DNA from: Candidatus Baldrarchaeota archaeon | GTDB lineage: Archaea > Asgardarchaeota > Baldrarchaeia > Baldrarchaeales > DXJG01 | Assembly (NCBI GenBank): GCA_019056805.1 | Contig: DXJG01000010.1 | Coordinates: forward strand, 30,001-62,000 | Direction: 5' to 3' | Length of the DNA stretch: 32,000 bases | Shown: positions 1 to 17,398 of the stretch, in pieces | Numbering within the stretch: position 1 is the first letter of the stretch | How the letters are laid out: each line of letters starts with the position of its first letter | Position numbers and translations under genes: made by a program | Notes under the pieces: generated by a model | Databases searched by the model: none | What the model was told of the DNA's origin: nothing | The model's input: only the letters and a program-made list of their open reading frames with translations

Positions 1-1080
1 AAAGACTTCTGGAATACATTCAAATACCTCCTAAACTACGCAGATCAAAGAAAACCAGATCTATTTCTAATATCAGGAGACCTATACGACAAAGTTAACC
101 CCAGAAACCCACCGAGAACACAAATCCTAAAATATTTCAGGCATCTGCACAACAAAGGAATAAAAATCTTCCTAATAGGAGGACACCACGACACTCCACG
201 CTCAATTGAGGAAGGAGCTTCGCCTCTAGACGAACTCGCCGCCTCAGGATACGTAACATACCTCCCAGGAATAAACAAACCAGCCGTACAACACGTAAAA
301 ATAAAAGACCTAGACATCTGCATATCCGGCCTAACCTACAACTTCAACCTAAACCCGGGAGAAGACCCCTTAGAAAAAACAAAACCGAAAACAGAAGGCG
401 ACATCAACATACTAATGCTACACTACACAATACAAGGATTCACACCAACCTATATGACAAACGAACCAACAGTAAAAACCTCAAACATACCAAACGAAAT
501 AAACTACGTAGCAGCAGGACATCTACACGAACACAAAGAAAAACAACGAGGAAAAACCCTCATTGCATACCCTGGAAGCACAGAAAGAAGAAGTTTCCTA
601 GAAGAAAAAACAGAGAAAAAAGGCTTCCTATGGATAGAACTAAACCAAGAAAAAACAGTAAACAAAGAATTTATCGAAGTACCTACGAGACCAATGAAAA
701 CCCTAACCTACAAAATCACACCAAACACAAAAAACCCAACAACAGAAATAATCACCTACGCCTTCCAACATAAAAACCCAGAACTAATTTTAAGACTACA
801 AATAACAGGAAAAGTACCCCTAAACATCCTAACACAATACCAAAGAAACGAAATACTAAGAAAACTCCTCGACCACTTCTTCTACATAGTAATAGACGAC
901 AGAGACCTCATATACAAGGCAGAGAAATTCGAAACAATAGAAAGGTTAACGCCTCTCAAAGCCTTCACAGACTACATGAACCAACTAATACAAAAAGAAA
1001 AAGACCCCCAACGAAAAAGAATACTCGAACTAGCAAAAGAAATAGGCATAGAAAAACTTGAAGAGGCAGGAGCATGGTAG
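1..1080 (+). CDS. mre11: Mre11/SbcD-family metallophosphoesterase DNA nuclease, 5'-partial
   Basis: Frame 1 is open from base 1 (KDFWNTFKYLL...), so the track ORF at 415 is internal. Motifs: ISGDLYD, IGGHHD (GNHD position), LMLHYT, AAGHLH, AYPGS. Overlaps the SMC-like ATPase start. Confidence 0.92.
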   Translation, partial: KDFWNTFKYLLNYADQRKPDLFLISGDLYDKVNPRNPPRTQILKYFRHLHNKGIKIFLIGGHHDTPRSIEEGASPLDELAASGYVTYLPGINKPAVQHVKIKDLDICISGLTYNFNLNPGEDPLEKTKPKTEGDINILMLHYTIQGFTPTYMTNEPTVKTSNIPNEINYVAAGHLHEHKEKQRGKTLIAYPGSTERRSFLEEKTEKKGFLWIELNQEKTVNKEFIEVPTRPMKTLTYKITPNTKNPTTEIITYAFQHKNPELILRLQITGKVPLNILTQYQRNEILRKLLDHFFYIVIDDRDLIYKAEKFETIERLTPLKAFTDYMNQLIQKEKDPQRKRILELAKEIGIEKLEEAGAW

Positions 1081-3467
1081 TCTTAAACCGTCTAGAAGCT
1101 CAAAACTTCAGAAAACTAAACCTAACACTAGACTTCCCAGAAGGAATGCTAATAATAAAAGGACCAAATGAAGCGGGAAAATCAACAATCCTAGAAGCAA
1201 TACTTTATGCCCTATTCGGAAAACTAATGCGAGGAACAAAAGAACTAGCCATAAACCACCAATCAAACATCGCAAAAATAAAACTAACATTCACAATAAA
1301 CAACCAACAATACCTAGTCCAAAGAATCATAAAAAGAAACGGAACACAAGCAAAAATCTGGAAAATAACCCCAAACGGACTAGAACCACAAGCATTAACA
1401 ATACAAGAAACAAACAAATTCATAAAAGACCTACTGGGAGGCCTATCCTTCAACGAAATCCTAGTAACAAACATAGTAGCACAAAAAGAACTAAACAAAC
1501 TCACAGAACTAAAAGGACAAAACAGAGAAAAAATAATAAACGCCCTTCTAGGCCTCGACAGCTACAACAAAGCAATAGAAAAAATAACAGAAGACAGAAG
1601 AAACAAAAAACACGAACTAGAAACAAAAACAGAAAAACTTAACCAAATAACCAAAAGACTAGAAGCATATAGAAGAGATGTAGAAGATCTGAAAAGTAAG
1701 CAACAAAAACTAAAAGAAAACCAAGAAAAACTCGAAAAGAAAACCAAAGAATTTGAAGAAAAACATCCCGTATATCTCAAACTAAAAGAATATAGAGAAG
1801 CTCTAAACAAAAAACGCCAATTAGAAGCTGAACTAAAAGGAATAGAAAACATGATAAAACAACTTCAACAAAACCTACAAAACCTAGAAAAACAAACAAC
1901 AGAAAAACAACAAACACTTAACAAAACAAAAGAAATACTGACACAACAAAACGAACAACTCAACAAAGAAAAACTAAAATTAGAAGAATACAAAAACTTG
2001 GAAAAAACAGAAGAAATACTGATAAAAGTAGAAAGGAGATTTAGAGATCTTCAAGAACTGGGAAATAGGAAAAGAGAAATTTTATATCAATTAGAAGGGC
2101 TAAATGAAGATCTAAGAAAACTAAAAGAAAAACTTGAATCAAAAGAAACTAAAGAAACCTTAAGAAAAGAAAAAGAATTAAAAGAAAAACTTGGAAAAAC
2201 AAAAATATCACCCCTAATACTCATCCTCCTACTTTTACCATCACTCCTAGCCATATTATCACCCCTACTCATCACAATAGGACCTGTAGCTGTAATTCTC
2301 TACATTTTCTATATTACAAGAACTAGGAATTCTTTTCAACAAGAATTGATCCAAATAAAAGACAAAGTAATAGAACTAAAGGGTCTACCCGCCCTAATCC
2401 AACAAAACGAAAAACAAATACATGAAATAAAGCAAAACATAGCAATCATGGAAAAACAAGAAGAAAGCCTAAAACAAGAAATAAAAACAGTCCTACTTAA
2501 CTTAGAAGAAAAATATAAGCCGAAAACATGGACTAACCTCGAAGAACTATTACAAAAAACTAAAGAAAACTTAAGACAACTACAAAAAGAAAAAATAGCA
2601 ACAGAAACAAAAATAACCATACTAACGAACAAGATCCAAATGCTAAAAACTCAAATCGAAGAACTAGAAAATGGTATTGAAAAACTAAAGGAAAAAAGAG
2701 AAGAAACAACAAAAAGTATAGAAGAAAAGAACAACGAACGGTTAGAAATTCAACAACAATTAGATTCAATAAATCTACCAAAATTACCGGGAGACATTCA
2801 ATACAGCGAAGAACTATTTGAGAAAACAGAGCAAGAAATTACAGATCTTAAAGGAGAAATAAATACTCTAAAAGGTATCATCGAAGAGCTTCAAAGAAAT
2901 ATCGGGGAGCTTAAGAGAAGAGTAGAAGAGAATAAAAGCGTAGAGCAAGAATATAAGCAAGCAAAACAAGAAGTAGAAGAACTTGAAACACTTATTGAAG
3001 CACAAACAACAGCAATAGAAAAATTGAAAGAAACAGCAAGAAGCATGCGAGAAAAATTTTTGCCAGCGATAGAAACAAACATGAGCCAAATAATCTCCCA
3101 AATAACAGGAGGAACCTATAAAGCAGTAAGACTAGACGAAAACTACAACATCGAAGTCCTAGACTCTAACGCAGGAAAATTCATACCAAAAGACATATAC
3201 AGCGGAGGAACCGTAGACCAGTTTCTCCTAGCAATGAGACTAGCCTTCATACTATCCCTACTACCACAAACAAAACAAACATACCCCCGATTCCTATTCC
3301 TAGACGAACCCCTAGCATCATCAGACCAAAACAGAAGAAACAACATAATAAACCTACTAACAAAAACACTAAGCGAAGAATTCAAACAAATAATACTAAT
3401 AACACACCTAAACATAAACCCACCAAACACAAAAACAATAACAATAAACCAAGGAAAAACAGCTTGA
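1074..3467 (+). CDS. rad50: Rad50/SbcC-family (YhaN/SbcE-like) SMC ATPase with central hydrophobic segment and no zinc hook
   Basis: Walker A GPNEAGKST, Q-loop VAQKE, long coiled coils, signature YSGGTVDQFLLAMRLA, Walker B LFLDEP, H-loop LITH. No Cys in 797 aa. Confidence 0.9.
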   Translation: MVVLNRLEAQNFRKLNLTLDFPEGMLIIKGPNEAGKSTILEAILYALFGKLMRGTKELAINHQSNIAKIKLTFTINNQQYLVQRIIKRNGTQAKIWKITPNGLEPQALTIQETNKFIKDLLGGLSFNEILVTNIVAQKELNKLTELKGQNREKIINALLGLDSYNKAIEKITEDRRNKKHELETKTEKLNQITKRLEAYRRDVEDLKSKQQKLKENQEKLEKKTKEFEEKHPVYLKLKEYREALNKKRQLEAELKGIENMIKQLQQNLQNLEKQTTEKQQTLNKTKEILTQQNEQLNKEKLKLEEYKNLEKTEEILIKVERRFRDLQELGNRKREILYQLEGLNEDLRKLKEKLESKETKETLRKEKELKEKLGKTKISPLILILLLLPSLLAILSPLLITIGPVAVILYIFYITRTRNSFQQELIQIKDKVIELKGLPALIQQNEKQIHEIKQNIAIMEKQEESLKQEIKTVLLNLEEKYKPKTWTNLEELLQKTKENLRQLQKEKIATETKITILTNKIQMLKTQIEELENGIEKLKEKREETTKSIEEKNNERLEIQQQLDSINLPKLPGDIQYSEELFEKTEQEITDLKGEINTLKGIIEELQRNIGELKRRVEENKSVEQEYKQAKQEVEELETLIEAQTTAIEKLKETARSMREKFLPAIETNMSQIISQITGGTYKAVRLDENYNIEVLDSNAGKFIPKDIYSGGTVDQFLLAMRLAFILSLLPQTKQTYPRFLFLDEPLASSDQNRRNNIINLLTKTLSEEFKQIILITHLNINPPNTKTITINQGKTA

Positions 3468-3618
3468 ATTTAGCATCAAAGAGTTTAAAGAACTCACCTC
3501 CACAAGGAGTTAAAAAAGTCACTTACAATAGATGCCTCAGTCTATATCGACAGATACTCAAAAAACTACTAATAACAGAAGCGTCAACAATTACTAAAAA
3601 CAAAACTCATATACTCTA

Positions 3619-3837
3619 TCAAGCGCCAATTTCCCGTGAAATCAATTTAGCTATTTGTTTAAGCAATTTTTCACGAGCATTAGAAATCTCCACCCCAACC
3701 AATTTACCACCCTCATCATACTCAACCCTAACTCCTTCATCAACCTCCTCAGAATCAACAGCAACACCTTTTCCAAACGAGATATAAAGAATATCCGACT
3801 CTTCATCATACCAAATCTTCACTTTACCCTTACCCAT
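3619..3837 (-). CDS. DUF2283-family putative antitoxin
   Basis: MGKGKVKIWYDEESDILYISF...VRVEYDEGGKLVGVEI matches the DUF2283 pattern. The internal ATG at 3837 is Met67 of track ORF 3619..4035. Confidence 0.75.
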   Translation of the reverse strand: MGKGKVKIWYDEESDILYISFGKGVAVDSEEVDEGVRVEYDEGGKLVGVEISNAREKLLKQIAKLISREIGA

Positions 3838-4049
3838 CTCCCAAAACCCACCCTTTCTTTCAATTTCCCTATCAATTCTCCTACAAGGATAAACAGTAAC
3901 AACCCTAATAACATTATCCCCCCTAACATAAACAACCACCAAATTAGTTTTAACACCCTCTACTCCAACTTCAGAAACAGCTACAAAAGCCCTAGACAAA
4001 AGATCATAAAAAACAAACCTAGGATTAACAAGCACATTCTTTCAATTGC
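3838..4049 (-). pseudogene. DUF4258-like toxin remnant, in frame with the DUF2283 gene
   Basis: VLVNPRFVFYD...LVVVYVRGDNVIRVVTVYP resembles DUF4258. The N-terminal motif AIERM (4035-4049) is in another frame and the usual intervening helix is missing. Confidence 0.5.
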
Positions 4050-4243
4050 AGCAAGAAAAACAGACAACCCATGAACCACATTATAACCAAAGAATAAATT
4101 TTCTCGTAATGAAATCATCTTGCTAATTCGCATTTCATAATCGTACTATCTGTTCATTCACATTGGTTACAGAGAACTTTCGAACCGTCTCTATCTCTCC
4201 TAAACTTCCTCCAAGACAGGAGACTTCGTGGCTTGAGGGCTCT

Positions 4244-4567
4244 CTAAGTAGTTGGAAGCTCTGCACAATGCTTATGTAAAGCTTCAAGAACCCTTTTTAC
4301 AACTGTCCGCCTAAGATCACCAGTTAATCTATCATATATACCTTCAACCGTATCAAGACAATCAAAAATTATTTCACCCACCGAAGAAGGCTTCTGCATA
4401 TCCCTATAATAACCATCAAACAGAAAAACTATATACTCAACCACAGAATCCACTACCTTATTTATAAGCACCTTTTCTTTATCTAACGCTTTCTTAGCAA
4501 ACTCATATACCCGCTTCTGCTTCTCATACACTTTCTTCGGATCCGGAAAATATTCCACACACAACAC
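4244..4567 (-). CDS. hypothetical protein (107 aa)
   Basis: GTG start preceded by GAGGA; plausible helical composition; no motif recognised. Confidence 0.55.
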   Translation of the reverse strand: MLCVEYFPDPKKVYEKQKRVYEFAKKALDKEKVLINKVVDSVVEYIVFLFDGYYRDMQKPSSVGEIIFDCLDTVEGIYDRLTGDLRRTVVKRVLEALHKHCAELPTT

Positions 4568-5014
4568 ATCCTCAACAATTTAACAAATCAAACTACAATT
4601 CATATTTCCAACAAACTTAAAACACTATCTATTTCAATACACAATTCCTGAACATATTTTCCTCTTCTACACATCACCAAGAAAACCTTTGCCCCATTCT
4701 TTTATTCCATCTTCTGTTTCTGAATGAGTATTGAATAATTTGTTACGTGCTCTAAGATTTTGTTGTATTTTTCTCCTCTTCTTTGTATAGTGTTTCTAAT
4801 TTTCGAGGGCTAATATCGTGTGTTGTGGTGGAGAGTGTACTGGAAAAAGAAATGTAATGAACTTTTAAATTGACTTAGGAACGCCATTAAAAAGAAATTT
4901 TAGAAATCATTGATCCAGCTGAAAGAGTATACAATATTCATTATTATAGCAAAAACACCAAAACTTGAATAACACAGCACATTTGTGATAAAATCGTTAA
5001 AAAGAGTAAAGTTT

Positions 5015-5107
5015 GGTGGGTTCCGTCAAAAAACGAGAGTGCACCGCATAGTGCGCACAGGGGGAGGAGGGGGGAGACCTACTCACACACCGACGGAACC
5101 TTTCACC
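5015..5107. other. GC-rich intergenic stem-loop element (candidate ncRNA or cis-element)
   Basis: Perfect 9-bp inverted repeat GGTTCCGTC (5019-5027) / GACGGAACC (5092-5100), extended by GGTG/CACC. Inner hairpin GCAC-CGCATA-GTGC. About 60% GC (56/93 by hand count). Confidence 0.4.
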
Positions 5108-5126
5108 CTTATGCTTTCCCAATATA

Positions 5127-5369
5127 CTAAACACTCAATTTCCCCTCCTCATCATCCTCAATATATTTAATATATTTTTTCAATGCTTCCACAAAAACTT
5201 TAAACTCTCTAAAACTCATCCTCGAAATATAATCCTTAAAATCCATTAAAATTATTCCAGAACGCTTATCAAAAGACAGCTCCACCCTAGAACCATTAAA
5301 CAACCTTAAAAACCCAACAACCCTACCCTCTTCATTCCTCACCTTCACACCCCTCACCCCACCACCCAT
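5127..5369 (-). CDS. small hypothetical protein (80 aa)
   Basis: ORF 12 bp downstream of the RHH gene, same strand; no motif recognised. Confidence 0.55.
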   Translation of the reverse strand: MGGGVRGVKVRNEEGRVVGFLRLFNGSRVELSFDKRSGIILMDFKDYISRMSFREFKVFVEALKKYIKYIEDDEEGKLSV

Positions 5370-5381
5370 CGTACAAAATCT

Positions 5382-5612
5382 TCAAGTAAATGACGTCTGC
5401 GATGCTTCCTCCGACTTAACCTCTTCCCCAATACTCTCACTAACACTACCTGACGCTTTCTTCGCTTCATGACAACGACATGCCTTCAAAAGCAAAGCTT
5501 TCACCAAATCACCAAAAGTAAGCTTAACCCCTCTCATAGCATGCTCATACTTCAACTTCAACAAAAGCTTGTAAGTCTCCTCATCCACCTTAATACTTTT
5601 CAACCTTACCAC
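5382..5612 (-). CDS. ribbon-helix-helix (CopG/VapB-like) DNA-binding protein
   Basis: KSIKVDEETYKLLLKLK...LTFGDLVKALL fits the beta-helix-helix pattern. Confidence 0.65.
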   Translation of the reverse strand: MVRLKSIKVDEETYKLLLKLKYEHAMRGVKLTFGDLVKALLLKACRCHEAKKASGSVSESIGEEVKSEEASQTSFT

Positions 5613-5730
5613 CAGTACAAAAGTAGAAAATAGCTAATATATAAAATTAACCATATACTCTATTAGGGGCTGTAAACGTTTAGAAGTTTTCAAACTTATC
5701 TAAGTCTTCAAAACCGTTTCTCTTCACCTA

Positions 5731-5738
5731 GCGCGCGC
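5731..5738. repeat. GCGCGCGC octamer, copy 1 (within the palindrome TAGCGCGCGCTA)
   Basis: Read directly: 5721 tcttcaccta gcgcgcgcta. Confidence 0.95.
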
Positions 5739-5893
5739 TATCTAAATACACATGTATCGGCACAGCACCCTTCAACACAAAATCCTCAGGTATACTTACA
5801 TCAATTGTTAGCGTGCCAACCATGATTGGCCAATCGTTTACAACCTCAATATTATAGTAGAACTGACCTGGATTCGTTGCAACAAGCTTATAG

Positions 5894-5904
5894 CCCCCCC
5901 CCCC
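5894..5904 (-). repeat. G11 homopolymer (C11 on + strand) at a frameshift
   Basis: 5891 tagccccccc ccccga. A run of 9 or 12 G would restore the frame. Confidence 0.9.
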
Positions 5905-6601
5905 GACCTATCCTTTGCAAAGACGACGTCGAAGTATGTTATTGGATTAAATTCGCTGTCAGTTAGATACGAGTTAACTTTGAGACTAACCAAGATAACC
6001 GTTACAGAATTCGGCGTTTCTTCATTACCTGCAACATTAACACTATAATATTCAATGGTGTAGTTTCCGTCTGGGCCTTCAAGCTTGAAGGGTCCAACAT
6101 ACTCAGTCCAGTTGCCACCATTAATACGATAGTAGGTATGTGCAACACCTGAAACATTGGCTACTCCTAGAACATCGTCGCTTGCTGTAAGCGTGAACTC
6201 CGTAGCAGAAGTAACATAGATATTACCTGCTTCATCAACGCAGTGGGTTCCAATAGTCAAATTGGGTTTTGGAGGAGTCTTATCAATCTTTATTACCTCA
6301 CACTCCGTTGCTTCCACGTTCCCTGCATTATCTGTTGAATTGTAGTAAACCGTAATTATTCCCTCAGTTGTGATAGTAAACGGCTCCGTATAAGTTATCC
6401 AAGTGACGCCATCAAAACTATACGCCGTTTCAGCTACACCCGAAATATCATCCGTCGCCGATAAAGTAACGGTCACGTCCGAAACATACCAGCCTTCAAA
6501 CCCTAGCGTGCCATTTAAACTAATCGTGGTCTCAGGAGGAGTCGTATCAGCAGGTTTAGCCCAGCCACTCCTCTCCGTAAACGGATAGTAGTCATAATCT
6601 G

Positions 6602-6609
6602 GCGCGCGC
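6602..6609. repeat. GCGCGCGC octamer, copy 2
   Basis: Read directly: 6601 ggcgcgcgca. Confidence 0.95.
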
Positions 6610-7143
6610 ATTGCGGACAATAAATCTTGTCTTCAACTGTAGAAGTTACCGGTTGCACTTTTTTATCAGAGCCCCAAAAAACACCAAGTAAAGCCCCATA
6701 TATCAATGGAACAATAAATGAACCGACAATTGATCCAACCGTCTCATCTCCAACACCCGAAGCAAAGATAAGAACAATCCAGCCAAGTATTGAGTAGACA
6801 ATGGCAGTGAGGTAACGTGACTTAATAGGAAATATATAGCATAAAATATCGCATAGACGAGTCCAATAATCGTACTGCCAAGAATAAGGATAACATACAC
6901 GACTACAAAAATACTACCGAATATAATGATCTCAAGTCCTCCAGATCCTCCACCAGACGTTGCAAAACCACCAAAAATATAAGAAATAACTGCTCCCAGA
7001 CCTGCACCTAATCTCCCAAAAACCGCCCCCAAAACAATAACGATGAAAACCGTTAACAACGCAAAAATAAAACCAAAAACAACACCCACAAATGCACCAG
7101 CTCTCATTCCCCTTGTAAGATAAAGCGACATTTCACTCACCAA
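6602..7143 (-). pseudogene. multi-pass membrane protein with truncated C-terminal zinc ribbon
   Basis: Hydrophobic ORF 7143-6703. After a frameshift near 6830 it continues FPIKSRYLTAIVYSILGW...LIYGALLGVFWG...KIYCPQC and is cut at GCGCGCGC before the second CxxC. Confidence 0.65.
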
Positions 7144-7249
7144 GCTTTAAAACAACTCTTATTCAAATCTTTCAAAATTTTAAATTAATAGTAAAATCTC
7201 AACCTTTTAAAATGATCGTATAAACCATCACAGTATCCTTAAAGTATTG

Positions 7250-7519
7250 TTAAAATATTCCTCGATAAGCTCTTCTTCGGTGGCGAACATAATAAATAAC
7301 TACGATTTTCGCCTTAGTATCCACTTGGTAAATAACTCTGTAATCCCCGACCCTAATTCGATAAATTCGCTCAACACCCCTAAGCTTACGACAATCCGGC
7401 GGAAAAGGATTTACTGAAAGCGATTCAACAACCTCAATAATCCTTAAAACATGCTTCGGCTCAATACTCTCCAAATCCTTCTCAGCCGATCTCTTCCACA
7501 AAATTTTATAAGAGCCCAC
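7250..7519 (-). CDS. relE: RelE/ParE-family toxin
   Basis: YKILWKRSAEKDL...KLRG...YRIRVGDYRVIY...HRRRAY. Confidence 0.9.
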   Translation of the reverse strand: MGSYKILWKRSAEKDLESIEPKHVLRIIEVVESLSVNPFPPDCRKLRGVERIYRIRVGDYRVIYQVDTKAKIVVIYYVRHRRRAYRGIF

Positions 7520-7706
7520 GACTCCTCAACCTTTTCTTAACCTCTTCAAAAGACACCGTAGGTTCATCTCGACGCTCAGCAACCACAGCCAAATCATGAA
7601 GATCCTCCAAAAGATCCTCAAACTCATCAATAGGAATAATAACCGCAACTTTTCCCCCCTTCTCATCCACAATATACTGCCTCTGAACCTTCTTCAAAAA
7701 CACCAC
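7506..7706 (-). CDS. cognate antitoxin (Phd/RelB-like)
   Basis: KVAVIIPIDEFEDLLEDLHD...VSFEEVKKRL; acidic, upstream of and overlapping relE. Confidence 0.8.
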   Translation of the reverse strand: MVFLKKVQRQYIVDEKGGKVAVIIPIDEFEDLLEDLHDLAVVAERRDEPTVSFEEVKKRLRSRGLL

Positions 7707-8041
7707 CCCAACAACCTATAAAGAGAACCTAATAAACTTCTCCAAACCACACCAAATAAACCTTTCCACTACCAACCACACCAACAAAAAGTAAGCCCAC
7801 ATCCAACTTAACAACAACAGCAGGTATCCCCACTCTACTATCACTTTCTTCATTAACATTAGAATAAAATTCTTTGCTTGTTTTCTTGGCTTAACTGCCT
7901 ATGCTACTTAGTAAATACAAGTAAAATTTTCTGAAAATTCTAAAAGAAAAAGAGGATATTAGTTAAGTTAGAAGATCATTGTTCATCATCTTATGAACGC
8001 ACTCATACTTCTCAAATGTACAAACCTACCTCACTCGAAAA

Positions 8042-8300
8042 TCACTCATAACCTTTAGAATAAAGTATTGCCGCTCTAGCAAGATCGAAAGCTATATCCC
8101 TCAAAGCCGCCGAACGACTAGAAACATCTTCAATACTTTTAGCAATTTTTATTGCTTCCTCGAACATTTTCTCTGCCTTTTCACGTTCCCCATTCTTAAA
8201 AAGCTCAAAAGCAATAGACTTCAAAGCCTTCACACGAAAATTCCCATCCATAATGCTCCTAGCTATTTCAACAGCTTCTTCGAATCTTCCAGCCTTGACA
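8042..8300 (-). pseudogene. TPR-like helical-repeat protein remnant
   Basis: Two repeats, FEEAVEIARSI...RVKALKSIA and FEEAIKIAKSI...RSAALRDIA. The track N-terminus overlaps the start of a + strand gene, so the true 5' end appears lost. Confidence 0.55.
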
Positions 8301-8324
8301 ATTTCACAAACAATAAAAAATAAG

Positions 8325-8899
8325 ATGATAATAATGGCAAAACCTTCCATTCACCTATTCATGGTTCTTGGAAGTATCATCTCCATAGTTTTCGGAGTAT
8401 TAACAAGCTTCTCCCAGGCTTAGGCTATCTTAAAAGCACCATCCACGCCGAAACAATCGTGACCATCGACCACCTACCAACCAAATTTCAACCCTACCCA
8501 TACACCTACAGCCCACTCATAATAAGCTTCGCAGGCATCCTAACCCTAATAGCATCAATTAAACGCGGGGAAAGAGAACCCATCCTCTGCCTACTAGCAA
8601 CTACCCTAGACTCCCTAGGAATATTCTCCTCCCTATTCGAAATAGGAATCGAAGTTCTCACATATAGAGGAGTTGCAACATTTACAATCTATTTTCCCTG
8701 GATAGCATACCTAACAATGCTTCTCGGATTCCTAATAATATTTGTAAGCATCATAGTTAGGTTTCGAGGATCCACCCTAACTCTCCTAGCCATCCCACTA
8801 CTCCTACCATTAATAATCCCCACAATCTCCCTCTACATCTACATTATCCCCGAACTTCAAATCACAACGGCCACAATAATAAATGAAAGCGCGCGCTAA
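8325..8899 (+). pseudogene. membrane protein, frameshifted near 8414 and ending at GCGCGCGC
   Basis: MIIMAKPSIHLFMVLGSIISIVFG... (8325-8422) shifts into PGLGYLKST...TIDHLP (track ORF 8459..8899). About four hydrophobic segments; ends INES-AR* on agc gcg cgc taa. Confidence 0.55.
8889..8896. repeat. GCGCGCGC octamer, copy 3 (a shorter GCGCGC follows at 8937-8942)
   Basis: Read directly: 8881 aaatgaaagc gcgcgctaac. Confidence 0.95.
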
Positions 8900-8958
8900 C
8901 ATACACTAAACAATAGCTCTATTTAACAAACAAGTGGCGCGCACCTAAACAACTTGCA

Positions 8959-9276
8959 TTACCCATCTGCCTTAGGTCTTAAGTCTTCCCCACACTCAGG
9001 ACAGAAATTTACATTAGAGGGGATGCGGGCTTTGCAACTTGGACAAATCGCAAGAAGAGACTCAGATACTTTAGGCGTTATAGGTGTAGGCTCCAGAGAA
9101 ACTTTCTTAGGTGAAGGTGCAGAAACCTTCTTCGACGAAGATGTAGCTAACCCCATGACAATAAATAAGATACTAAGAACAACGATACCTATTGCAGCCG
9201 GGTGTTGTAATCGATTATATGTCCAAAAACCGAATACGAGTAAAAAAATTCCAAAAACCACTTGTCCACGATCCAT
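8959..9276 (-). CDS. 2-TM membrane protein with C-terminal zinc ribbon
   Basis: Two N-terminal hydrophobic helices; CPSC...FCPECG. Confidence 0.8.
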   Translation of the reverse strand: MDRGQVVFGIFLLVFGFWTYNRLQHPAAIGIVVLSILFIVMGLATSSSKKVSAPSPKKVSLEPTPITPKVSESLLAICPSCKARIPSNVNFCPECGEDLRPKADG

Positions 9277-9669
9277 TTTTCCACCTCCTTTTCAACATTA
9301 TTCTTTCTTTTAGTTTCTTTTAGAGAGAGAAGAAACCGTTAACCCACAACGGATCTCATAGCAAACTCCCCTTAGCTCACTTAAGGGGCTTCCTGCATCA
9401 GAGAAATACTTGCCCGTAGCTAACACATAAACTGGGACAAGAAATAGAAACATTCTATCCACAGGAACTATGAGCCTTCTCAACTCCGATCAAGACTGAT
9501 CTAATAAAATATTTCTAGAAACTATAAATACTTTTCGGCTATAAAAGAGGAAGTTACACTATCAATCTCTGCTATTTTTCTAGGTTCATACACCAATTAG
9601 AAGTATTTTAGAGAAAAGCAAAAACACTATGAAAAGAAAGAGCAGTGCAAAACAATGTTTATTAACGTA

Positions 9670-9677
9670 TTTATATA
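9670..9677 (+). promoter_or_regulatory. candidate TATA box for the AbrB-VapC operon
   Basis: TTTATATA about 21 nt before the ATG at 9699, which fits a leaderless archaeal transcript. Confidence 0.4.
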
Positions 9678-9698
9678 ATGTATCTTTGGTGATACATA

Positions 9699-9956
9699 AT
9701 GGCGATAACCAAATATAGGACAAAAGTGTTAAGCGGATATAGAATAACCATCCCAAAAGAGATCAGAGAAAAACTCAATATAAAAATCGGAGACGAACTA
9801 GAGATAATTGTAGAAAGCGGAAAATTATTAATCCCCATTATCAAAGAAGATCCCGTCATGATGCTCGCCGGTATAGCAGAAGGCGCACCAACAGAAATCA
9901 AAGGAGACGAACTATTTTTAGAAGAACTAAAAAGGAAGATTAAAAATGAAGACTAA
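9699..9956 (+). CDS. AbrB/MazE/SpoVT-family antitoxin
   Basis: GYRITIPKEIREKLNIKIGDEL. Confidence 0.9.
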   Translation: MAITKYRTKVLSGYRITIPKEIREKLNIKIGDELEIIVESGKLLIPIIKEDPVMMLAGIAEGAPTEIKGDELFLEELKRKIKNED

Positions 9957-10443
9957 ATTCGTTGACACACCAATATTTATAAAATGGATGTCAGCCAAGA
10001 AAAACAAACTATCATTAGAAGCTGCAATAAGCGGCTACATCCTCACAAAAATCATGAAAGGCGAAAAAGCCGTCACAACAACATTAGTAAAAGACGAAGT
10101 CATCATATGGCTCTCCAGATACAAAGCAACCGCACTACCAAAATTTATCCAATCCATAAGAGCACTAGTCAACCTAGAAATCATATCACCAACCCTAAAC
10201 GACCAAGAAGAAGTATGCAACAACTACGGAAAATACCCACTAGGCATTTCAGACCTAATAAACCTAGCGGTAATGCACAGAAAAAACATAAACGAAATAT
10301 ATACAACAGACAAAGGATACGCCTCAACAAACATAAAAATAATATTCCACGAACTATCCAAAGAATCAAGCTTCAAAGCATTCGTAAAAAACCTCAAAAA
10401 CAAAGGATTCAAACCATCCTTTCCACTAAACCATCAAACATAA
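9946..10443 (+). CDS. vapC: PIN-domain (VapC) toxin
   Basis: FVDTPIF, KDEV, LGISDLINLA, IYTTDKGY; overlaps the antitoxin. Confidence 0.85.
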   Translation: MKTKFVDTPIFIKWMSAKKNKLSLEAAISGYILTKIMKGEKAVTTTLVKDEVIIWLSRYKATALPKFIQSIRALVNLEIISPTLNDQEEVCNNYGKYPLGISDLINLAVMHRKNINEIYTTDKGYASTNIKIIFHELSKESSFKAFVKNLKNKGFKPSFPLNHQT

Positions 10444-10704
10444 CAATAATCAAAACACTACCAACACAGCAATCAAGAAAAATTAACCACTATCATCATA
10501 AAGTCTCATAGATTCATATCATACGCTAATTTTAATTTTCCCTACCATATTAACGTCATACAAAACTTCTTCATCAAAACACTCAAGTTGTACTATAATG
10601 AAGATCTAAGATCTACCTAGCTAATATTCGAAAAACTTAATAGTATTAGTTGTAATACATATTACCACAAATTTTTAAAACCTAACAACGTTAGGTGAAA
10701 CCAG

Positions 10705-11514
10705 ATGAATAAAAAAATACTTGCAATAATTTTAGTAATCATTGCAAGCACCCTAATTTTAGGAAAAACCTTAAATATTCTTGAAAGATTCCAGGGAACT
10801 CAAGAAAATGTTGGATTTGAAGAAAATCCACCTCCCGAAGGAGAAAATATAGATAATGAAGAAATTAAAAGTACGGAAATTCCGCTTTCAGAACAAGAAA
10901 TTGAAAACATCTTAACAATTCACATAATCGATGAAACTGATGAGGAAGCTGCAGAAATCGACAATGCGCCTCCAGGTGGAGCCGTTAGCTGGCCACCAGT
11001 AAACATAACAAAAGTCAGCATTGGAACCTATGAAGGATATTTATATGTAAAGTTTGAATTCCTCGGCGAAATACCCGTGGAAAAGGAAGAACCAATAGAA
11101 ATGATAAGTTTCTCAGTAGAGATAGATGCAGACCTTAATTACAATACAGGCTGGCACGGTACAGACATACAAATAGCCGTTCACCTAAAATATGACGAAG
11201 AAACCCACATCATTGAGCCAGGCGATATAGATGTCACTGTATGGTACAATATACCTACAACCGAAGATGAGGATGAGGCTCATAATACAGACATAATATA
11301 TGGAGAATATAAGGGTGGACCTGGAACAAACTACTTCATATTCCGAATACCTATGAACGTCGTTGGTTTACATTCTGGACAACAAATTTACTTCTCAGCA
11401 GGTGCAGAAGCATCAAGCCCAGAATATCATCACTATGCTTTCGATGGATTAAGATCTCCCCAAATATCAGTTCCAGGTACAGATGGCAGCCTATTTCTAT
11501 TAACCATACCCTAG
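10705..11514 (+). CDS. exported or membrane-anchored acidic beta-rich protein of unknown function
   Basis: Signal/anchor MNKKILAIILVIIASTLIL; GGTGA RBS; very D/E-rich. Confidence 0.75.
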   Translation: MNKKILAIILVIIASTLILGKTLNILERFQGTQENVGFEENPPPEGENIDNEEIKSTEIPLSEQEIENILTIHIIDETDEEAAEIDNAPPGGAVSWPPVNITKVSIGTYEGYLYVKFEFLGEIPVEKEEPIEMISFSVEIDADLNYNTGWHGTDIQIAVHLKYDEETHIIEPGDIDVTVWYNIPTTEDEDEAHNTDIIYGEYKGGPGTNYFIFRIPMNVVGLHSGQQIYFSAGAEASSPEYHHYAFDGLRSPQISVPGTDGSLFLLTIP

Positions 11515-11921
11515 ACCATAGTATAAGAGCATAAACCACTAATAAGAATAAACGATTCTTATAGCGTGTAAGAAGAGGGGTGTACCGCCTATCCGATGAA
11601 AAAGATTTTGCGATAATACATAAAACTACTTAGTTTTTCTTTCCTTGTCTCCAAATGTTCTGCATTCTTAGCCTAAAGCTAAAATCCTAAATTCAATAAC
11701 TCAATGATTTCTTTACTAGCCTCTGAGATTAAAGAAATCGTAATTACGGCTTTTGGGTTATTGTTTTTTCTTCCCAACCACGTAACCGTACCCTATGAAA
11801 TCGCTGTATTCTTTGAAAATTTTCCCTATATTTATAAATAAAATGTATAAAAACGTTATATAGATCCTATCAATAAACAGTATTTGACAGTGAGATACTA
11901 AACTTTCAAATATTTCTTGCC

Positions 11922-12626
11922 TTATCTTTTAGTACTTTGAGACTTTTTCCACTTATTATATCCAGATTCCATCATTATCCTCTTCATAATCTTAGATATT
12001 TTTGTTATCGGAGGCAGATATTTGTAGTCTTCGGCTTGAGCTTCAAACATTATTGAAGGAATTCCTCCAACGTAAAGGTCGATGTCCTCTAGGTCCTCAA
12101 AGTCTTCATGCCACGAAATTTCATCAAAAACAACCGAACATAACTCTCGAATTTTATCAAGTATTTCATCTGGTACATTTTGATCGATGATGGCTTCAGC
12201 GGCAATTTCCGCTTCTCCATTGACCCTATATATCCAGAGGTAAATATTGTCAACATACAGTGTTGAAGCTTCCAATTGACCAAGATAAAAATAGATGTAG
12301 CCATCTTCATAGTTAACTTCTATATCCTCCACACGATAATGTTCAAGACATTGAAGATGTTTAAGAAGCGGTCTAACAAACCACCGATAAAAGCGAAACC
12401 CCATATCAAGCGCATACATAAACGCAAATCTTAATTGCTTTCTTTTACCCTTGATACGAGGAGGATTCTCAAGTACAAGAGAATCTACCACAAAATCTCC
12501 CATAATCGCTGCAGCACCAATAACTTCTTTAACTAAATCCTCCACCGATACATTAGTTTTCCGACTCAATTTCTCTAAATATTCGTAAATAGATTTATCA
12601 GCAATATTTACAGTTAATTTTACCAA
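11922..12626 (-). CDS. protein with N-terminal RHH domain and an unknown acidic C-terminal domain
   Basis: VKLTVNIADKSIYEYLEKLSRKTNVSVEDLVKEVI; GGGGTGA RBS upstream. Confidence 0.65.
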   Translation of the reverse strand: MVKLTVNIADKSIYEYLEKLSRKTNVSVEDLVKEVIGAAAIMGDFVVDSLVLENPPRIKGKRKQLRFAFMYALDMGFRFYRWFVRPLLKHLQCLEHYRVEDIEVNYEDGYIYFYLGQLEASTLYVDNIYLWIYRVNGEAEIAAEAIIDQNVPDEILDKIRELCSVVFDEISWHEDFEDLEDIDLYVGGIPSIMFEAQAEDYKYLPPITKISKIMKRIMMESGYNKWKKSQSTKR

Positions 12627-12642
12627 TCTTCACCCCTCCATT

Positions 12643-12777
12643 TCACCTAACTATTTCCATCGTTTCCAAATAAGAAATACGATGTTGAATCAGATCAACA
12701 CCCTGCTCTATTACTCCAAAAAGTAATAAAACAGCAAGCACATTAATATCTACCAAAATACACTCAAGCAGCACCAT
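12643..12777 (-). pseudogene. possible PIN-toxin N-terminal remnant (44 aa)
   Basis: GGGGTGA-ATG VLLECILVDINVLAVLL resembles the PIN beta1 motif ILVDTNVL; premature stop. Confidence 0.35.
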
Positions 12778-12874
12778 TCACCCCTATATCCTCCACACAC
12801 AATACATTAAACAAATCATAACATTTAAACCTTTAGGAAACAAAACCAAGGAATCCTAGTATATATTGAAAAAC

Positions 12875-13065
12875 CTATGACCTTGCTTTAATTAAAAGGT
12901 CAAATCCCCCCTTGCTTCCTCTTTGAGTCATAAGTCTCTCACATGTAGGACAAACCGTAATCACACCTCTAAGTTTCTCAATCTCTGCCTTCAAATCACC
13001 TACCTTAAGTTTTAAACCCTCTATTTTCCTCTCAATCTTCTCTCCAACTCTTCAACGCTCCCCTC
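12875..13065 (-). pseudogene. coiled-coil + CxxC gene remnant
   Basis: My translation: SVEELERR / IERKIEGLKLKVGDLKAEIEKLRGVITVCPTCERLMTQ...*; frameshift near 13045; no start codon. Confidence 0.4.
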
Positions 13066-13199
13066 ACCAACTTTCCATAACAGTTTAACTGAATATATTC
13101 GCTGTAAGTGACAACTGGTTACTTCTTGGACCTGTTTTAATGATAATAGTAACTATACCAACCATCATTCTCTTAGAAAAAATTGCACATCAACCGTGG

Positions 13200-13300
13200 T
13201 TCAGGCAATTTAAAATCTAAAACCGTCCTTTATTTTGCTTTTGTAAATGTAAAACTCATTTCATGGTAATTATTATATTTTTACATAGCCTTTTACTTTT
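13200..13300. other. strand compositional skew inversion point (approximate)
   Basis: + strand is C>>G to the left (13021-13080: 25 C, 1 G) and G>>C to the right (13441-13500: 22 G, 0 C). Confidence 0.7.
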
Positions 13301-13310
13301 GGTGTTGATA

Positions 13311-13703
13311 ATGACTAAGAGTTACTGTAAGTCTCAGTTAATGGAAATGCTGAACACAAAACTTAAGAAAGCTATTGAATCAAATTTACTCTCAAAAAAT
13401 TTTGTTGAACACGTTGAGAAAGAGGAAAAGAAGTTGGAGGAGGATTTTAAAAGTGTGATAAAGGAGATGGATAGGGGAATAGGTGATGTGGTTAGTGATT
13501 TGCCTGTTTCTTTTAATAAAAATAATATTATTGCTGCGATAGTTAACTATTGTAGGCGTATTTATGTTTTCATGGATTCTGTAGAATCTTTTATAGACGA
13601 TTTATTCTCTTATGGTACATTTGGGGAATACAGCTCTTATGTGCTTAAAGAAGAACCTGAAGATTTTCATTTATTTGGAAATGAAGATGTTGTAGATGAT
13701 TAA
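13311..13703 (+). CDS. hypothetical acidic helical protein
   Basis: Track ORF 13263..13703; the ATG at 13311 follows GGTG. No motif recognised. Confidence 0.6.
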   Translation: MTKSYCKSQLMEMLNTKLKKAIESNLLSKNFVEHVEKEEKKLEEDFKSVIKEMDRGIGDVVSDLPVSFNKNNIIAAIVNYCRRIYVFMDSVESFIDDLFSYGTFGEYSSYVLKEEPEDFHLFGNEDVVDD

Positions 13704-13977
13704 CTTAACTTGTCATTCTTTTAATTTTTATGTGTATTGTTGTCTATTCGATGACTTTTTAATATTTGAACTCCATTTTCTTTACGATCTAAATTTGTAA
13801 CATTGCTTTCAATTTTTTCGTCTTGCGAAAAATATTCTAGATTTCAACCTACTATAGTAGGGGGGCTACAAAGTTACTTTAGTAGTTTCTTGGAAAGGTC
13901 CTAATTTGCTATGGTGATAATAGTTATATTTTGGTGTTACATTATTTTGTTCTACATGGACTTGGGGGGGGTCTAGG

Positions 13978-15072
13978 GTGGACCGGGTAGATCAATTTTT
14001 GAAATTGTTTTTTATCCTAGGTTTTGTCATATTTTTGATTGGTAGTTCTGTTGCTTTGGCTGCTGTGGTTCGGCTTTCTGTGGTCGGTGTGACGAGAAAC
14101 CAAGTGATATACGATGAGAAACCTCTAGTCATATCTGCTGGATGGATATCTAAAAGCTACGAGTTGGTCGATGAGATTTTAGAGGTTTATTGGTGGACCT
14201 ATGATTATACCTGGGAATATACGCCTTGGGTCGGAGAGGGAAGAAACTTTGTAATTAGTGGCAGCGCCATTGAACTATCCTCTCCTTAACGCCCCTTTAA
14301 CTTCTATGTGTTTGACTCCGATAATTTCTACTTGTGGCGTGACGGTAAAAAGTACACCGCATTCTATGAGGTTAAAAACGTTTTCTCAACTAGTTTCAGC
14401 TTTACCATAGCTTCGGAAGAAGATCTACCCAGCTCTTTTTACTTTGTTGTTGAAGAAGTTGATGAAGGTTCGCCACCTACTGTTCGAGTCGAGGCTACGA
14501 TGGAATGGATCGAGAAAACATCTCGATACTATTGTTCAAACTATGTAGGCTACAAGGAGTCGATTTCAGGAGAAGAATTCACTGTTAAAGGAACTGTAAA
14601 AGAAGTTAATAACCGTAAATTCAATTTCTACGTGTTGGATTATGATAATTATCAAAGATGGCTGGCAAACCAAACATACATGGCATATTTCGAAGCAAAA
14701 AACACAGCTGCAACAACGTTCACAATTTCATTCATCACTCTACCATCAGAGCTTTACTTCGTTGTTGAGAATCCGAGTAGCGTAGATGAACAGGTAATAA
14801 TCTCCATAACCATACAGTGGAAAGAAAAATCACTCGCAGAAGCTCTTCCAAGCATATTAGCAGGTATTATTATATCCATTACGGGTTTTGGCACAGTAAT
14901 AATGGTAGTACTAAGTCTACCAACCTACCTGTCACTAGACTATATCAAAGTCAAAGCAAGGAAAGAAGAAAAGAAAAAGAGAAGAGAAAAGCCTGAAGAA
15001 AAACTGCTTAGAACAGCTAGAGAAATAATTGATGAAGTTAAGAGGAGATATTTGGGAGAAGAGGCGATATGA
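13978..15072 (+). pseudogene. membrane protein with a duplicated extracellular beta-domain, split by one in-frame TAA (14287-14289)
   Basis: ORFs 13978 and 14308 share a frame: SSP*RPFNFYVFD. Repeat 2 reads NNRKFNFYVLDYDNY...YFVVE. N- and C-terminal TM helices. Confidence 0.8.
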
Positions 15073-15440
15073 GGTTGAAATATACGTTTTGGGGGTTCAC
15101 CTGGTTCCTAATAGCACTCATACAAATGACGTGGGTGGAACAACTGAAAATAATGGCGAAAGCATTAAATTACAGGATAATTGGCTACATTTGGCAAATC
15201 AACTATATTATGATCATAACAGTCTTCCTTCTTCCGGTGACTCTGATTGCAGACTACTTCGCAACTAAGAAGGAGGAGGAGGAAAGAAGATTTAGAGACG
15301 AAGCGATAATCCTGATCAGAGAGATCGAGGAACTGAAAAAACTAGTTGAATTAAGGCAACCGGTGAAATGTTCACGTTGCGGAGCAGCAGTAACACTACC
15401 AGGAGCAAAATACTGTCCTAACTGTGGAACACCACTATAA
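15069..15440 (+). CDS. 2-TM, coiled-coil, C-terminal zinc-ribbon protein
   Basis: CSRCG...KYCPNCG; overlaps the upstream stop (ATGA). Confidence 0.8.
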   Translation: MRLKYTFWGFTWFLIALIQMTWVEQLKIMAKALNYRIIGYIWQINYIMIITVFLLPVTLIADYFATKKEEEERRFRDEAIILIREIEELKKLVELRQPVKCSRCGAAVTLPGAKYCPNCGTPL

Positions 15441-15724
15441 TAAACCTACTACGAACCTCTATTTTTATTTTTTAACGCTTTAAAAAGAGGTAGTCTCTCT
15501 AACTTTTCCTGAACTAGGAGAGGCTGAAAAGGTTTATTTTTCTATCTATTCTTTCAGACTTTACTTTTAATGTGCTTTAACTTTGTTGTTAATTTTGTTT
15601 AAATTTCTAGAAATTTTTTCTCGTTCAAAATTTATAGTTATTGTGTGGGATGTATGGATGAATTTTTATTGTTTTCAAAAAGGTAATAAGAGTATTAGGA
15701 GTATAGGTGTGTGAGGTTGGTTGG

Positions 15725-16702
15725 ATGATTAGGAGTTTGGAGATTGAAAATTTTAAGTCGATTAAGAGTTTGAGGTTGGATTGTAGGAGGATAAATATTT
15801 TTATTGGGGAGCCGAATACTGGGAAATCTAATATTTTAGAGGCTTTGGGTGTTTTTTCTTACGGAGCATATAGTAATTATTATTCTCTTAGGGATTTTGT
15901 TAGGTTGGAGATCATGAGTAATTTGTTTTATGATGAGAATTTAGATGAGACCACAAGAATAAAAGCTGACGATAAAATTTTTAGGATCGAATTTAAGGAT
16001 GGAAGATTTGGGGGTGTTTGTCAAGAAGCTGATAAGGAGATTTTTAGTTTTGTTTTTGACTATGATGGGTCTGGCGAGAGTTCATCTTTTCGAAGACCTT
16101 TGTTGGTTCCTTTTAAGTTTTATAGGTTTGTTGTGAGAGAGAAGTTTCCGAGGAGGGAGTCTGATTTTCTTTTGCCGCCTTTTGGAGAGAATCTTTTAAC
16201 TATTCTTTTGACTCATGGGGATTTGAAGTCTCTTGTTAGTCAAATTTTTAATCAGTTTGGTTTAAAACTGCTTTTTAAGCCTCATGAGAATAAGATTGAA
16301 GTTGCTAAGTTGTATGGGGATGTTCTTATTTCTTACCCGTATTTTTTGGCGTCGGAGACTTTACAAAGAATTGTTTTTTATCTTGCTGCAATTAGTACGA
16401 GTAGAGATTCTATTTTGGTTTTTGAGGAGCCTGCGGCGCATGCTTTTCCTTATTATACGAAGTTTCTTGCTGAGAGGGTTGCTTTGGATGAGAGTAATAA
16501 TCAGTATTTTATTTCGACGCATAATCCTTATTTTCTTCTTTCAGTTTTGGAGAAGTCTCGTAGGGATGAGGTTTCGGTTCATGTTACGTATTTTGAGGAT
16601 TATCAGACAAAGGTTAGGACTCTGGATGAAGAAGGTATGGAGAAGTTGATGGATCTTGATGTGGATGTTTTCTTTAATATTGAGAGTCTTTTGGGGAAGT
16701 AG
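15725..16702 (+). CDS. ABC-type AAA ATPase (AAA_15/AAA_21, OLD/AbiEii-like)
   Basis: IENFKSI, Walker A GEPNTGKSN, Walker B LVFEEP, STH. The ATG at 15725 is preferred to the GTG at 15707. Confidence 0.9.
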   Translation: MIRSLEIENFKSIKSLRLDCRRINIFIGEPNTGKSNILEALGVFSYGAYSNYYSLRDFVRLEIMSNLFYDENLDETTRIKADDKIFRIEFKDGRFGGVCQEADKEIFSFVFDYDGSGESSSFRRPLLVPFKFYRFVVREKFPRRESDFLLPPFGENLLTILLTHGDLKSLVSQIFNQFGLKLLFKPHENKIEVAKLYGDVLISYPYFLASETLQRIVFYLAAISTSRDSILVFEEPAAHAFPYYTKFLAERVALDESNNQYFISTHNPYFLLSVLEKSRRDEVSVHVTYFEDYQTKVRTLDEEGMEKLMDLDVDVFFNIESLLGK

Positions 16703-16704
16703 AG

Positions 16705-17172
16705 ATGATTTTTGTGGAGTGTAAGCCGGATCGTGTTCTTGTAGAGTCTATAACGGGGATTTCGAGGAGGAAGATTAGGCATGCGGGGAATAAGCCTAGG
16801 GTTTGTAAAGAGTTGGAGAGGCGGAGAAATTGTAAGGGTTTGGTGGATGAAGATCCGTGGAGTGTTCAACCTCCTTATTTGAGGAGGATGGTGGTGGTTG
16901 AGGATTTATCAAGTTTTGGTATTAAAATCTTATATGATGAAAGTAGGAGTAATTATTTAGTTGTTTTGTGTCCAAGGTTGGAGGAGTGGATTTTAGAGGC
17001 TGCAAAGGAAGCCAAAATAGATTTGAGAAAGTATGGTTTGCCGAGGGATGTTGAAAGGTTTCATAGAGAGGTAAGTGTTGGGCTTGTAAAGTTTGAAAGG
17101 TTAATAAGTGATTTAAAAGGTCATAGTGAGAGAATTGAAATGTTAAAAAGGTCGTTGGAGTGGGAAAAGTAG
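16705..17172 (+). CDS. TOPRIM-like partner protein of the ATPase
   Basis: IFVECKPD (conserved E) and GLVDEDP (DxD), then LEEW. Confidence 0.6.
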   Translation: MIFVECKPDRVLVESITGISRRKIRHAGNKPRVCKELERRRNCKGLVDEDPWSVQPPYLRRMVVVEDLSSFGIKILYDESRSNYLVVLCPRLEEWILEAAKEAKIDLRKYGLPRDVERFHREVSVGLVKFERLISDLKGHSERIEMLKRSLEWEK

Positions 17173-17267
17173 GTATAACTAACAATAGTGTGTTGGCGTA
17201 ATTTTCTAATTTTGTGAATGAAAATATTCTTCACAGTTTCTTAGATCTCAATGAAATTGATTTGAAG

Positions 17268-17291
17268 AAACCCTTACGAGGGCGTTTTTTT
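17268..17291 (+). terminator. candidate hairpin + T-tract terminator
   Basis: CCCT-TACG-AGGG followed by CGTTTTTTT, downstream of the ATPase operon. Confidence 0.3.
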
Positions 17292-17398
17292 CGGAATATT
17301 TTGGAGGCTTGGGGATTTTCTCTCATGGGGCTAAGAGTTTGTAAGAGGATGTTCTTCTTTTGATGTAGATGGGAGAAATGTGTGAAGTATGTACATAG

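Follow-up and report, generated by a model that had tools for sequence, protein, structure and literature searches.

What could stand in for the zinc hook in a Rad50-type ATPase that contains no cysteine at all is the question raised by a 32,000-nucleotide (nt) stretch of a Candidatus Baldrarchaeota archaeon genome (assembly GCA_019056805.1, contig DXJG01000010.1, positions 30,001 to 62,000; hereafter the window, in whose coordinates positions are given unless stated otherwise). The window carries a rad50-like gene (1074..3467, plus strand) that encodes a Cys-free protein of 797 amino acids (aa) with a putative membrane hairpin, and that is the last gene of a nurA-herA-mre11-rad50 operon. To our knowledge, the zinc hook counts as a part of Rad50/SbcC that is universal and essential for function. 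If many natural proteins have exchanged it for a membrane anchor, this would bear on the purpose of the hook, be it arm joining or positioning of the complex, and also on where archaeal cells process DNA ends. The organism belongs to the Asgard archaea, the prokaryotes most closely related to eukaryotes. Here, we propose that the protein is probably the Rad50-like ATPase of a NurA-HerA-Mre11-Rad50 end-processing module, tethered to the membrane at its coiled-coil apex, with DNA-end resection and repair as its core job.

A Rad50/SbcC-type ATPase without a zinc hook

The 797-aa protein contains no Cys, two Trp, and five His, while Lys, Arg, Asp, and Glu together make up 32.5% of its residues. 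Alignment with 72 relatives revealed the complete set of motifs that characterizes a Rad50/SbcC head, all encoded on the plus strand. These comprise a Walker A motif, GPNEAGKST (aa 30-38, 1161..1187), in which G30, N32, E33, G35, and K36 are invariant; a Q-loop glutamine, Q137 (1482..1484), that is invariant in both this and a 24-row alignment; the ATP-binding cassette (ABC) signature motif with its following helix, SGGTVDQFLLAMRLA (aa 710-724, 3201..3245); a Walker B motif, FLFLDEP (aa 740-746, 3291..3311), with invariant F740, D744, and E745; an invariant D751 in the D-loop region 3' of Walker B; and a His switch, H778 (3405-3407). In the signature region, S710, G711, D715, and R722 never vary, and conservation is at least 90% at G712, T713, Q716, L718, L719, and A724, which bears out the SxGTxxQxxLAxRLA-type signature that an earlier note on this DNA had recognized here. 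L743, P746, and H778 show no variation among the 24 rows of the smaller alignment and at least 90% conservation among the 72 rows of the larger one. The near invariance of the head motifs points to an active ABC ATPase, as predicted from motif conservation.

Comparison with family models and solved structures supports the assignment, already proposed in the earlier note, to Rad50/SbcC-type ATPases that have an Mre11-type partner and no zinc hook, and within these to a YhaN/SbcE-like (AAA_27) lineage. The YhaN-type N-terminal domain AAA_27 (PF13514) scored 37.7 bits against a gathering score of 22 (E 2.1e-9). Among the other Pfam models, AAA_15 was over its cut-off, AAA_23 lay exactly at it (27 vs 27 bits), and SMC_N remained under it, while Rad50_zn_hook did not match the protein. 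The top NCBIfam models were those of Rad50, with PRK03918 at 1.2e-42, yet at 146 bits against a cut-off of 700; the Rad50 equivalog cut-offs were reached neither by this protein nor by the zinc-hook paralogue of the same genome described below (155 bits). The nearest solved sequences in a PDB search were the Rad50 heads of M. jannaschii (3aux, 3.7e-24), P. furiosus, and T. maritima, and the look-alikes in the ESM-Atlas take in AAA_27 clusters from Bacillota.

A predicted hydrophobic hairpin at the coiled-coil apex

The sole stretch of the protein with a Kyte-Doolittle 19-mer mean above 1.6 lies at aa 375-417 (maximum 2.79) and encloses an uncharged run at aa 378-415 (2205..2318, plus strand), whose relative position of 0.497 is the midpoint of the protein. 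This finding confirmed the hydrophobic midpoint segment of a Cys-free protein that the earlier note had placed at 2205-2325, to within two codons. At a charged-residue content of 32.5%, the chance expectation for an uncharged run of 38 residues is about 2.5e-4 per protein. Sums on an approximate insertion-free-energy-type scale were negative only for segments starting at aa 378-384 and 398.

The AlphaFold2 model of the protein (m519e9b8698d4, built with the 72-row alignment; mean predicted local distance difference test score 85.6) displayed a globular head and an antiparallel coiled coil capped by a helix-turn-helix at aa 380-415. In the model, the ascending arm (aa 162-374, 1557..2195, plus strand; helices 162-304, 309-354, and 357-374) is followed by a short break at GKTKI and then by the apex hairpin, which is composed of a helix at aa 380-394, a turn at aa 395-401 (LSPLLIT), and a second helix at aa 402-436 that runs on into the descending arm (aa 402-677, 2277..3104, plus strand; breaks at 476-488, 565-578, and 620-622). 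The long antiparallel coiled coil between the head halves that is typical of Rad50/SbcC is thus present in the model, with about 210 residues per side and a length of roughly 30 nm, whereas the CxxC zinc hook at its apex is absent. Basic residues flank the apex on both sides, with GKTK upstream and RTR downstream. As features of the sequence and the model, two hydrophobic helices, a tight turn, and positive flanks are the hallmarks of a helical hairpin. Together with the conserved position of the segment described below, they support the membrane-like hairpin that the earlier note had suggested, from which we infer insertion into the membrane.

A large clade defined by its hydrophobic apex

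The same architecture was found throughout the family. All of the 120 best matches in a search of 5.8 billion proteins lack CxxC and possess a hydrophobic mid-segment of roughly 20-60 aa, with an uncharged run of 17-61 aa (median 38) around a relative position of 0.497 and always within 0.435-0.544. In these homologues, the ten-residue flanks of the segment are net positive in 89% on the N side and in 92.5% on the C side, compared with 36% for background 10-mers of the same proteins, while the sequence of the segment itself is not conserved beyond hydrophobicity. The constant position and length, the basic flanks, and the freely varying sequence suggest lipid-facing helices whose two ends both lie in the cytoplasm, rather than a soluble domain for a specific interaction.

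An exhaustive HMMER search of 1.84 billion cluster representatives returned 15,023 matches at E<=1e-3, including 267 at E<=1e-30. The best 150 matches included 117 new full-length proteins, 108 of which are of the hairpin type and nine of which have neither feature, and a mid-protein CxxC was found in none of the 117. The hairpin-type representatives come from both archaea and bacteria. In a maximum-likelihood tree calculated from the heads only, with the apex excluded, 80 hairpin-type rows constitute one side of a branch with a Shimodaira-Hasegawa-like approximate likelihood ratio test (SH-aLRT) support of 98, and a single change of the apex trait explains this tree. The hydrophobic segment is not the peculiarity of one protein; it defines a large clade.

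The nine representatives with neither hook nor hairpin (P0207, P0212, P0215, P0229, P0231, P0232, P0234, P0252, and P0255) are bacterial and high in GC. A complete genome of the same phylum as our archaeon also encodes an 809-aa Rad50-like protein without hook or hydrophobic apex (G015:C1:346500-351000), with a 366-aa open reading frame (ORF) upstream. Such proteins may represent a third kind of apex.

The rad50-like gene closes an end-resection operon

The window opens with the 3' part of mre11 (1..1080, plus strand; 359 codons), which encodes a metallophosphoesterase nuclease (Pfam Metallophos, 1.3e-10 for the part within the window). The full gene begins 93 nt before the window, at contig 18 position 29908, and its 390-aa product (Metallophos 6.2e-14) keeps the phosphoesterase motifs GDLYD, GGHHD, and GHLHE. 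Among NCBIfam models, Mre11_Sulfo matched at 1.2e-28, under its cut-off, and the sbcd subfamily model at 77.8 bits against a cut-off of 77.65. The start of rad50 overlaps the mre11 stop by 7 nt (ATGGTAG, 1074-1080), such that the gene adjoins an Mre11/SbcD-type gene, as a Rad50/SbcC gene is expected to do. Upstream of the window on contig 18 lie the genes for NurA (449 aa, Pfam 9.6e-19) and then HerA (543 aa; DUF87 1.4e-46, HAS-barrel). All four genes are co-oriented with overlapping or abutting junctions, which is the arrangement of an end-resection operon. The earlier note, whose reader could not see beyond the window, had missed nurA and herA immediately upstream.

Downstream, a gene for a DUF2283 protein (3619..4035, minus strand; Pfam DUF2283 3.6e-17) converges on the operon, so that rad50 is its last gene. 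Two plus-strand ORFs, at 3464-3787 and 3655-4074, were considered as co-transcribed partners; they have no family match, overlap the minus-strand DUF2283 gene, and are probably not genes.

The operon context was further assessed in a survey of 50 hairpin-type rad50 loci from a scan of species-representative genomes, which belong to Thermofilaceae, Bathyarchaeia, Nitrososphaeria, Brockarchaeota, Asgard lineages, Dictyoglomota, and Chloroflexota (Anaerolineae). Mre11 adjoins the hairpin-type Rad50 in 43 of the 50 loci, and NurA and HerA complete a four-gene operon of the same order at 19-20 of them. A conserved fifth gene, such as one for a channel or a pilus component, was not found at these loci, where only antisense shadow ORFs and lineage-local genes recur. 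The cultivated Thermofilum adornatum 1505 (CP007493) possesses the same four-gene operon, with the hairpin-type protein annotated as Rad50, and its occurrence there renders the variant open to experiment. The earlier note would have given up its reading had the protein clustered with archaeal Rad50 orthologues that share the segment. This is partly the case, since hairpin types occupy the Rad50 slot in many archaea, T. adornatum among them.

In T. adornatum, a convergent gene for a Roadblock/LC7-domain protein lies just 3' of the hairpin-type rad50 (L094 10519-10893); it is not conserved at other loci.

A second, zinc-hook module in the same genome

Outside the window, a second end-processing cluster was identified on contig 17 (172503-179307; L011:4504-11307), where a 432-aa ORF is followed by genes for a HerA-like ATPase (587 aa; DUF87 7.9e-19), an Mre11-like protein (470 aa), a Rad50 (704 aa), and then a zinc-ribbon protein. 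This Rad50 carries a CPTC hook near aa 352 (Pfam Rad50_zn_hook, 25.2 bits), and its orthologues occur at 32-38% identity in several other families of the phylum. Both Rad50 proteins share the same plan of head, coiled coil, and apex, with an Mre11-like gene directly upstream and a HerA-like gene before that. However, their heads are only 27-28% identical, and the hook type has a shorter coiled coil and a deviant signature, SFGDRT, in place of the SGGTxDQ of the hairpin type. Furthermore, unlike the hairpin type, it has no AAA_27 match at E<=0.001. The 432-aa ORF has no family match and was tried as a NurA; the only likeness, AIDGS/AVDGS, is not significant (E 1.3).

The presence of a separate CxxC-hook Rad50 indicates that the hairpin type really is a paralogue in this genome. 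Of the unusual paralogue proposed in the earlier note, the paralogy therefore stands; the protein is not unusual, since its hydrophobic segment defines a clade. What is particular to this genome is that a hairpin-type and a hook-type module coexist, both with an Mre11 and a HerA-type partner of their own, while the hairpin architecture itself is family-wide. Having both architectures side by side in one genome offers a natural comparison for studying sub-functionalization.

The genome also encodes a third NurA (386 aa) on contig 9 (~150923-154774), where a 400-aa ORF precedes it and the gene for a HerA-family ATPase follows immediately, and has at least seven matches to the DUF87/HerA family in total.

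Distribution and possible transfer

Among 41 relatives, this genus is the only one in which both the hairpin type and the contig-17 type were found. With these queries, the hairpin type alone was found in family f12 and in single genomes from families f13 and f17, while several other families yielded only hook-type orthologues of the contig-17 protein. A CxxC-hook Rad50 was not detected in four other genomes searched (G014, G035, G042, and G043), and the search turned up no Mre11-linked Rad50 in them other than the hairpin type. Across the phylum, the hairpin type occurs in at least 10 of 268 genomes of at least 85% completeness (Thermofilum query, E<=1e-40; a lower bound). Both Rad50 types are carried by a metagenome-assembled genome (MAG) labeled as Thermofilaceae (G041).

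In the tree, the 797-aa Rad50 is nested, with a support of 98, among sequences from Thermofilaceae-labeled MAGs, to which it is 48% identical, compared with about 30% for other Asgard hairpin types. HerA (E about 1e-250 to 1e-260) and Mre11 are likewise closest to Thermofilaceae-labeled MAGs. As the whole operon is nearest to these MAGs, its transfer between phyla is plausible, as is a mislabeling of the MAGs, whose labels were taken as given. The stretch itself is present in subsurface and marine metagenome runs, and no RNA run is among those listed.

Comparison with known systems

Canonical archaeal clusters of herA, mre11, rad50, and nurA are found in M. jannaschii, P. furiosus, and Sulfolobus. 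The hairpin-type Rad50 resembles its canonical counterparts in its split ABC head with all catalytic motifs and in its long antiparallel coiled coil. Its gene context is also similar, with mre11 directly upstream through an overlapping stop and start and with nurA and herA in the same operon. In contrast to canonical Rad50, it lacks any Cys or CxxC, bears a 38-aa hydrophobic hairpin at the apex, and displays the SGGTxDQ signature, and its operon differs in gene order (nurA-herA-mre11-rad50).

Among described proteins, the one nearest in function and architecture is SbcE (YhaN) of Bacillus subtilis, which is about 960 aa long. It has been known since 2009, and its central domain was never explained. 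The hairpin-type Rad50 shares with it the absence of CxxC, a hydrophobic center between the arms, a nuclease partner, and, by its score above the PF13514 gathering threshold, the family assignment. Here, the link to SbcE runs entirely through the Pfam AAA_27 model and the Bacillota look-alike clusters. The archaeal proteins differ from SbcE in their length of about 800 aa and in their NurA-HerA operon. The B. subtilis protein was described as Rad50/SbcC-like and without CxxC, with a "unique" hydrophobic and insoluble central domain and with SbcF (YhaO) as its partner nuclease; the family was confined to Gram-positive bacteria, and the central domain was not read as a membrane hairpin (Krishnamurthy et al. 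2009, PMC2811018). If a membrane hairpin is indeed present, it would explain both the insolubility and the polar localization of SbcE.

LmuB, the SMC-like sensor of DNA ends in Lamassu systems, evolved from SbcC/Rad50-like ATPases, and the hook is missing from some of its short forms; the study of Lamassu evolution noted these hook-less forms and no membrane segments (PMC12663957). In PADLOC, the LmuB model PDLC03859 matched the hairpin-type Rad50 at 6.6e-35 and the hook paralogue at 6.5e-34, and the match appears generic to Rad50-like ATPases because the hook paralogue scores the same. Matches to PADLOC models of LmuB, DndD, PbeC, and JetC were set aside as generic SMC-like similarity. Neither an LmuA effector nor an LmuC was present among the neighbors (Mre11, HerA, and NurA upstream; the convergent DUF2283 gene downstream).

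Within an incomplete coverage of the literature, we found no publication on a transmembrane or membrane-anchored Rad50 or on this architecture in archaea. Reviews of archaeal NurA-HerA-Mre11-Rad50, including one from 2026 that covers Asgard homologues, contain neither "membrane" nor "hook".

Proposed mechanism and alternative readings

Both the partners in the operon and the genomes without a detected hook Rad50 argue for ordinary end resection and repair, which we regard as the most likely core job of the hairpin module, rather than dedicated immunity. In the mechanism that we propose, the hairpin would enter the cytoplasmic membrane from its inner face, its basic flanks both remaining on the cytoplasmic side, and the Mre11-Rad50 head would be suspended beneath the membrane at a distance of up to about 30 nm. 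Co-insertion in the membrane would hold together the two arms of a single M2R2 complex and so replace the arm joining by the hook. ATP-driven head engagement, clamping of the DNA end, cutting by Mre11, and resection by HerA-NurA would then proceed as in canonical complexes. Since the genome also carries a zinc-hook Rad50 cluster, we further propose a division of labor, in which the hairpin module would act close to the membrane and the hook module would be responsible for free end processing. The sequence features, their conservation across the family, the operon, and the paralogue are observed, while the insertion, its topology, the arm-joining role, and the biological substrate are inferred.

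Several points weigh against the proposal of a membrane-tethered end-resection module. The apex helices are short, with about 14-15 residues in the model and at most about 18 by sequence, and the turn between them lacks a polar loop, so that two full membrane spans and a monotopic or re-entrant hairpin are equally likely; the apex may thus be a hairpin of this second kind. The case for membrane insertion is built wholly from hydrophobicity, flank charge, and the pattern of conservation. The foci formed by SbcE were polar and nucleoid-associated with no uniform membrane signal, and its central domain was not called transmembrane (PMC2811018). The tree that unites the hairpin types was sampled with a hairpin-type query as seed, includes only 25 hook types, and leaves out canonical Rad50/SbcC references. 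Finally, the genome contains three modules with HerA or NurA, any of which may be the housekeeping one.

A broader proposal, which we offer tentatively and consider possible at best, is that a large and mostly unrecognized clade spanning TACK and Asgard archaea and several bacterial phyla swapped dimerization through the hook for membrane insertion of the apex, which would have given rise to a membrane-tethered NurA-HerA-Mre11-Rad50 machine. Where both types coexist, the tethered type would attend to DNA ends at the envelope, whether imported, injected, or membrane-attached, and the hook type to breaks in the nucleoid. The hook cluster in the same genome, the toxin-antitoxin- and defense-like neighbors, and the competence phenotype of SbcE leave room for such a role in handling envelope DNA, in which the hairpin module may be specialized.

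An alternative to repair as the core job is dedicated defense, in which the complex would be a membrane-tethered accessory immune nuclease that degrades the ends of entering viral or plasmid DNA, while the hook cluster would take care of repair. With the hook cluster elsewhere in the genome, the hairpin type is not needed as the sole Rad50, and its nesting among Thermofilaceae-labeled sequences is compatible with horizontal acquisition. Relatives of Rad50/SbcC have also been recruited to immunity, as in Lamassu (PMC12663957). Moreover, the operon borders toxin-antitoxin- and defense-like genes, namely the DUF2283 gene and those for an AAA_15/AAA_21 ATPase (15707-16702, plus strand; a 155-aa ORF comes after it), a PIN protein (17399-17830, minus strand), a DUF2281 protein (19143-19460, plus strand), and a nucleotidyltransferase (19874-20494, minus strand; a 128-aa ORF overlaps it). 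However, the partners of the hairpin type are the standard repair set of NurA, HerA, and Mre11, with no LmuA- or LmuC-like effector and with no fifth gene conserved in the 50 loci; its similarity to LmuB is non-specific, as judged from the hook paralogue; and its standing as the only Mre11-linked Rad50 found in G014, G035, G042, and G043 fits a core function. A role in defense or against incoming DNA, which the earlier note had raised as a possibility, is not favored by the operon context, and we consider dedicated immunity unlikely.

The anchor might, alternatively, set the nuclease and helicase at a DNA import or export pore, for the processing of DNA that is taken up or transferred. This reading draws on the gathering of SbcE at the poles of competent cells and its effect on transformation (PMC2811018), and on the co-localization of rad50 and herA-like genes with Ted systems in Pyrobaculum and Vulcanisaeta (PMC9905601). 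Nevertheless, the 50 hairpin loci share no conserved pilus, VirB4/CedB, CedA/TedA, or ComEC-like neighbor, and none was seen in the window. We consider a dedicated role in DNA uptake or transfer quite improbable.

We consider it very unlikely that the apex stays out of the membrane and instead packs into a hydrophobic bundle, buried within a soluble complex, through which two or more Rad50 arms are held together as a protein-only substitute for the hook, since the uncharged run is long (38-60 residues, with Kyte-Doolittle means of 2-3) and the conservation of hydrophobicity only, with basic flanks on both sides in about 90%, is the pattern of a lipid-facing segment and not of a specific interface, even though the helices are short for full membrane spans and the insolubility of the isolated central domain of SbcE would be expected of any exposed hydrophobic core.

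Other features of the window

From the DUF2283 gene onward (3619-20840), the window is occupied mainly by small hypothetical, toxin-antitoxin-like, and defense-like genes. The GC skew of the plus strand changes sign at about 12000-14000, from about -0.27 on the left to between +0.2 and +0.48 on the right, with the cumulative minimum at 12-14 kb.

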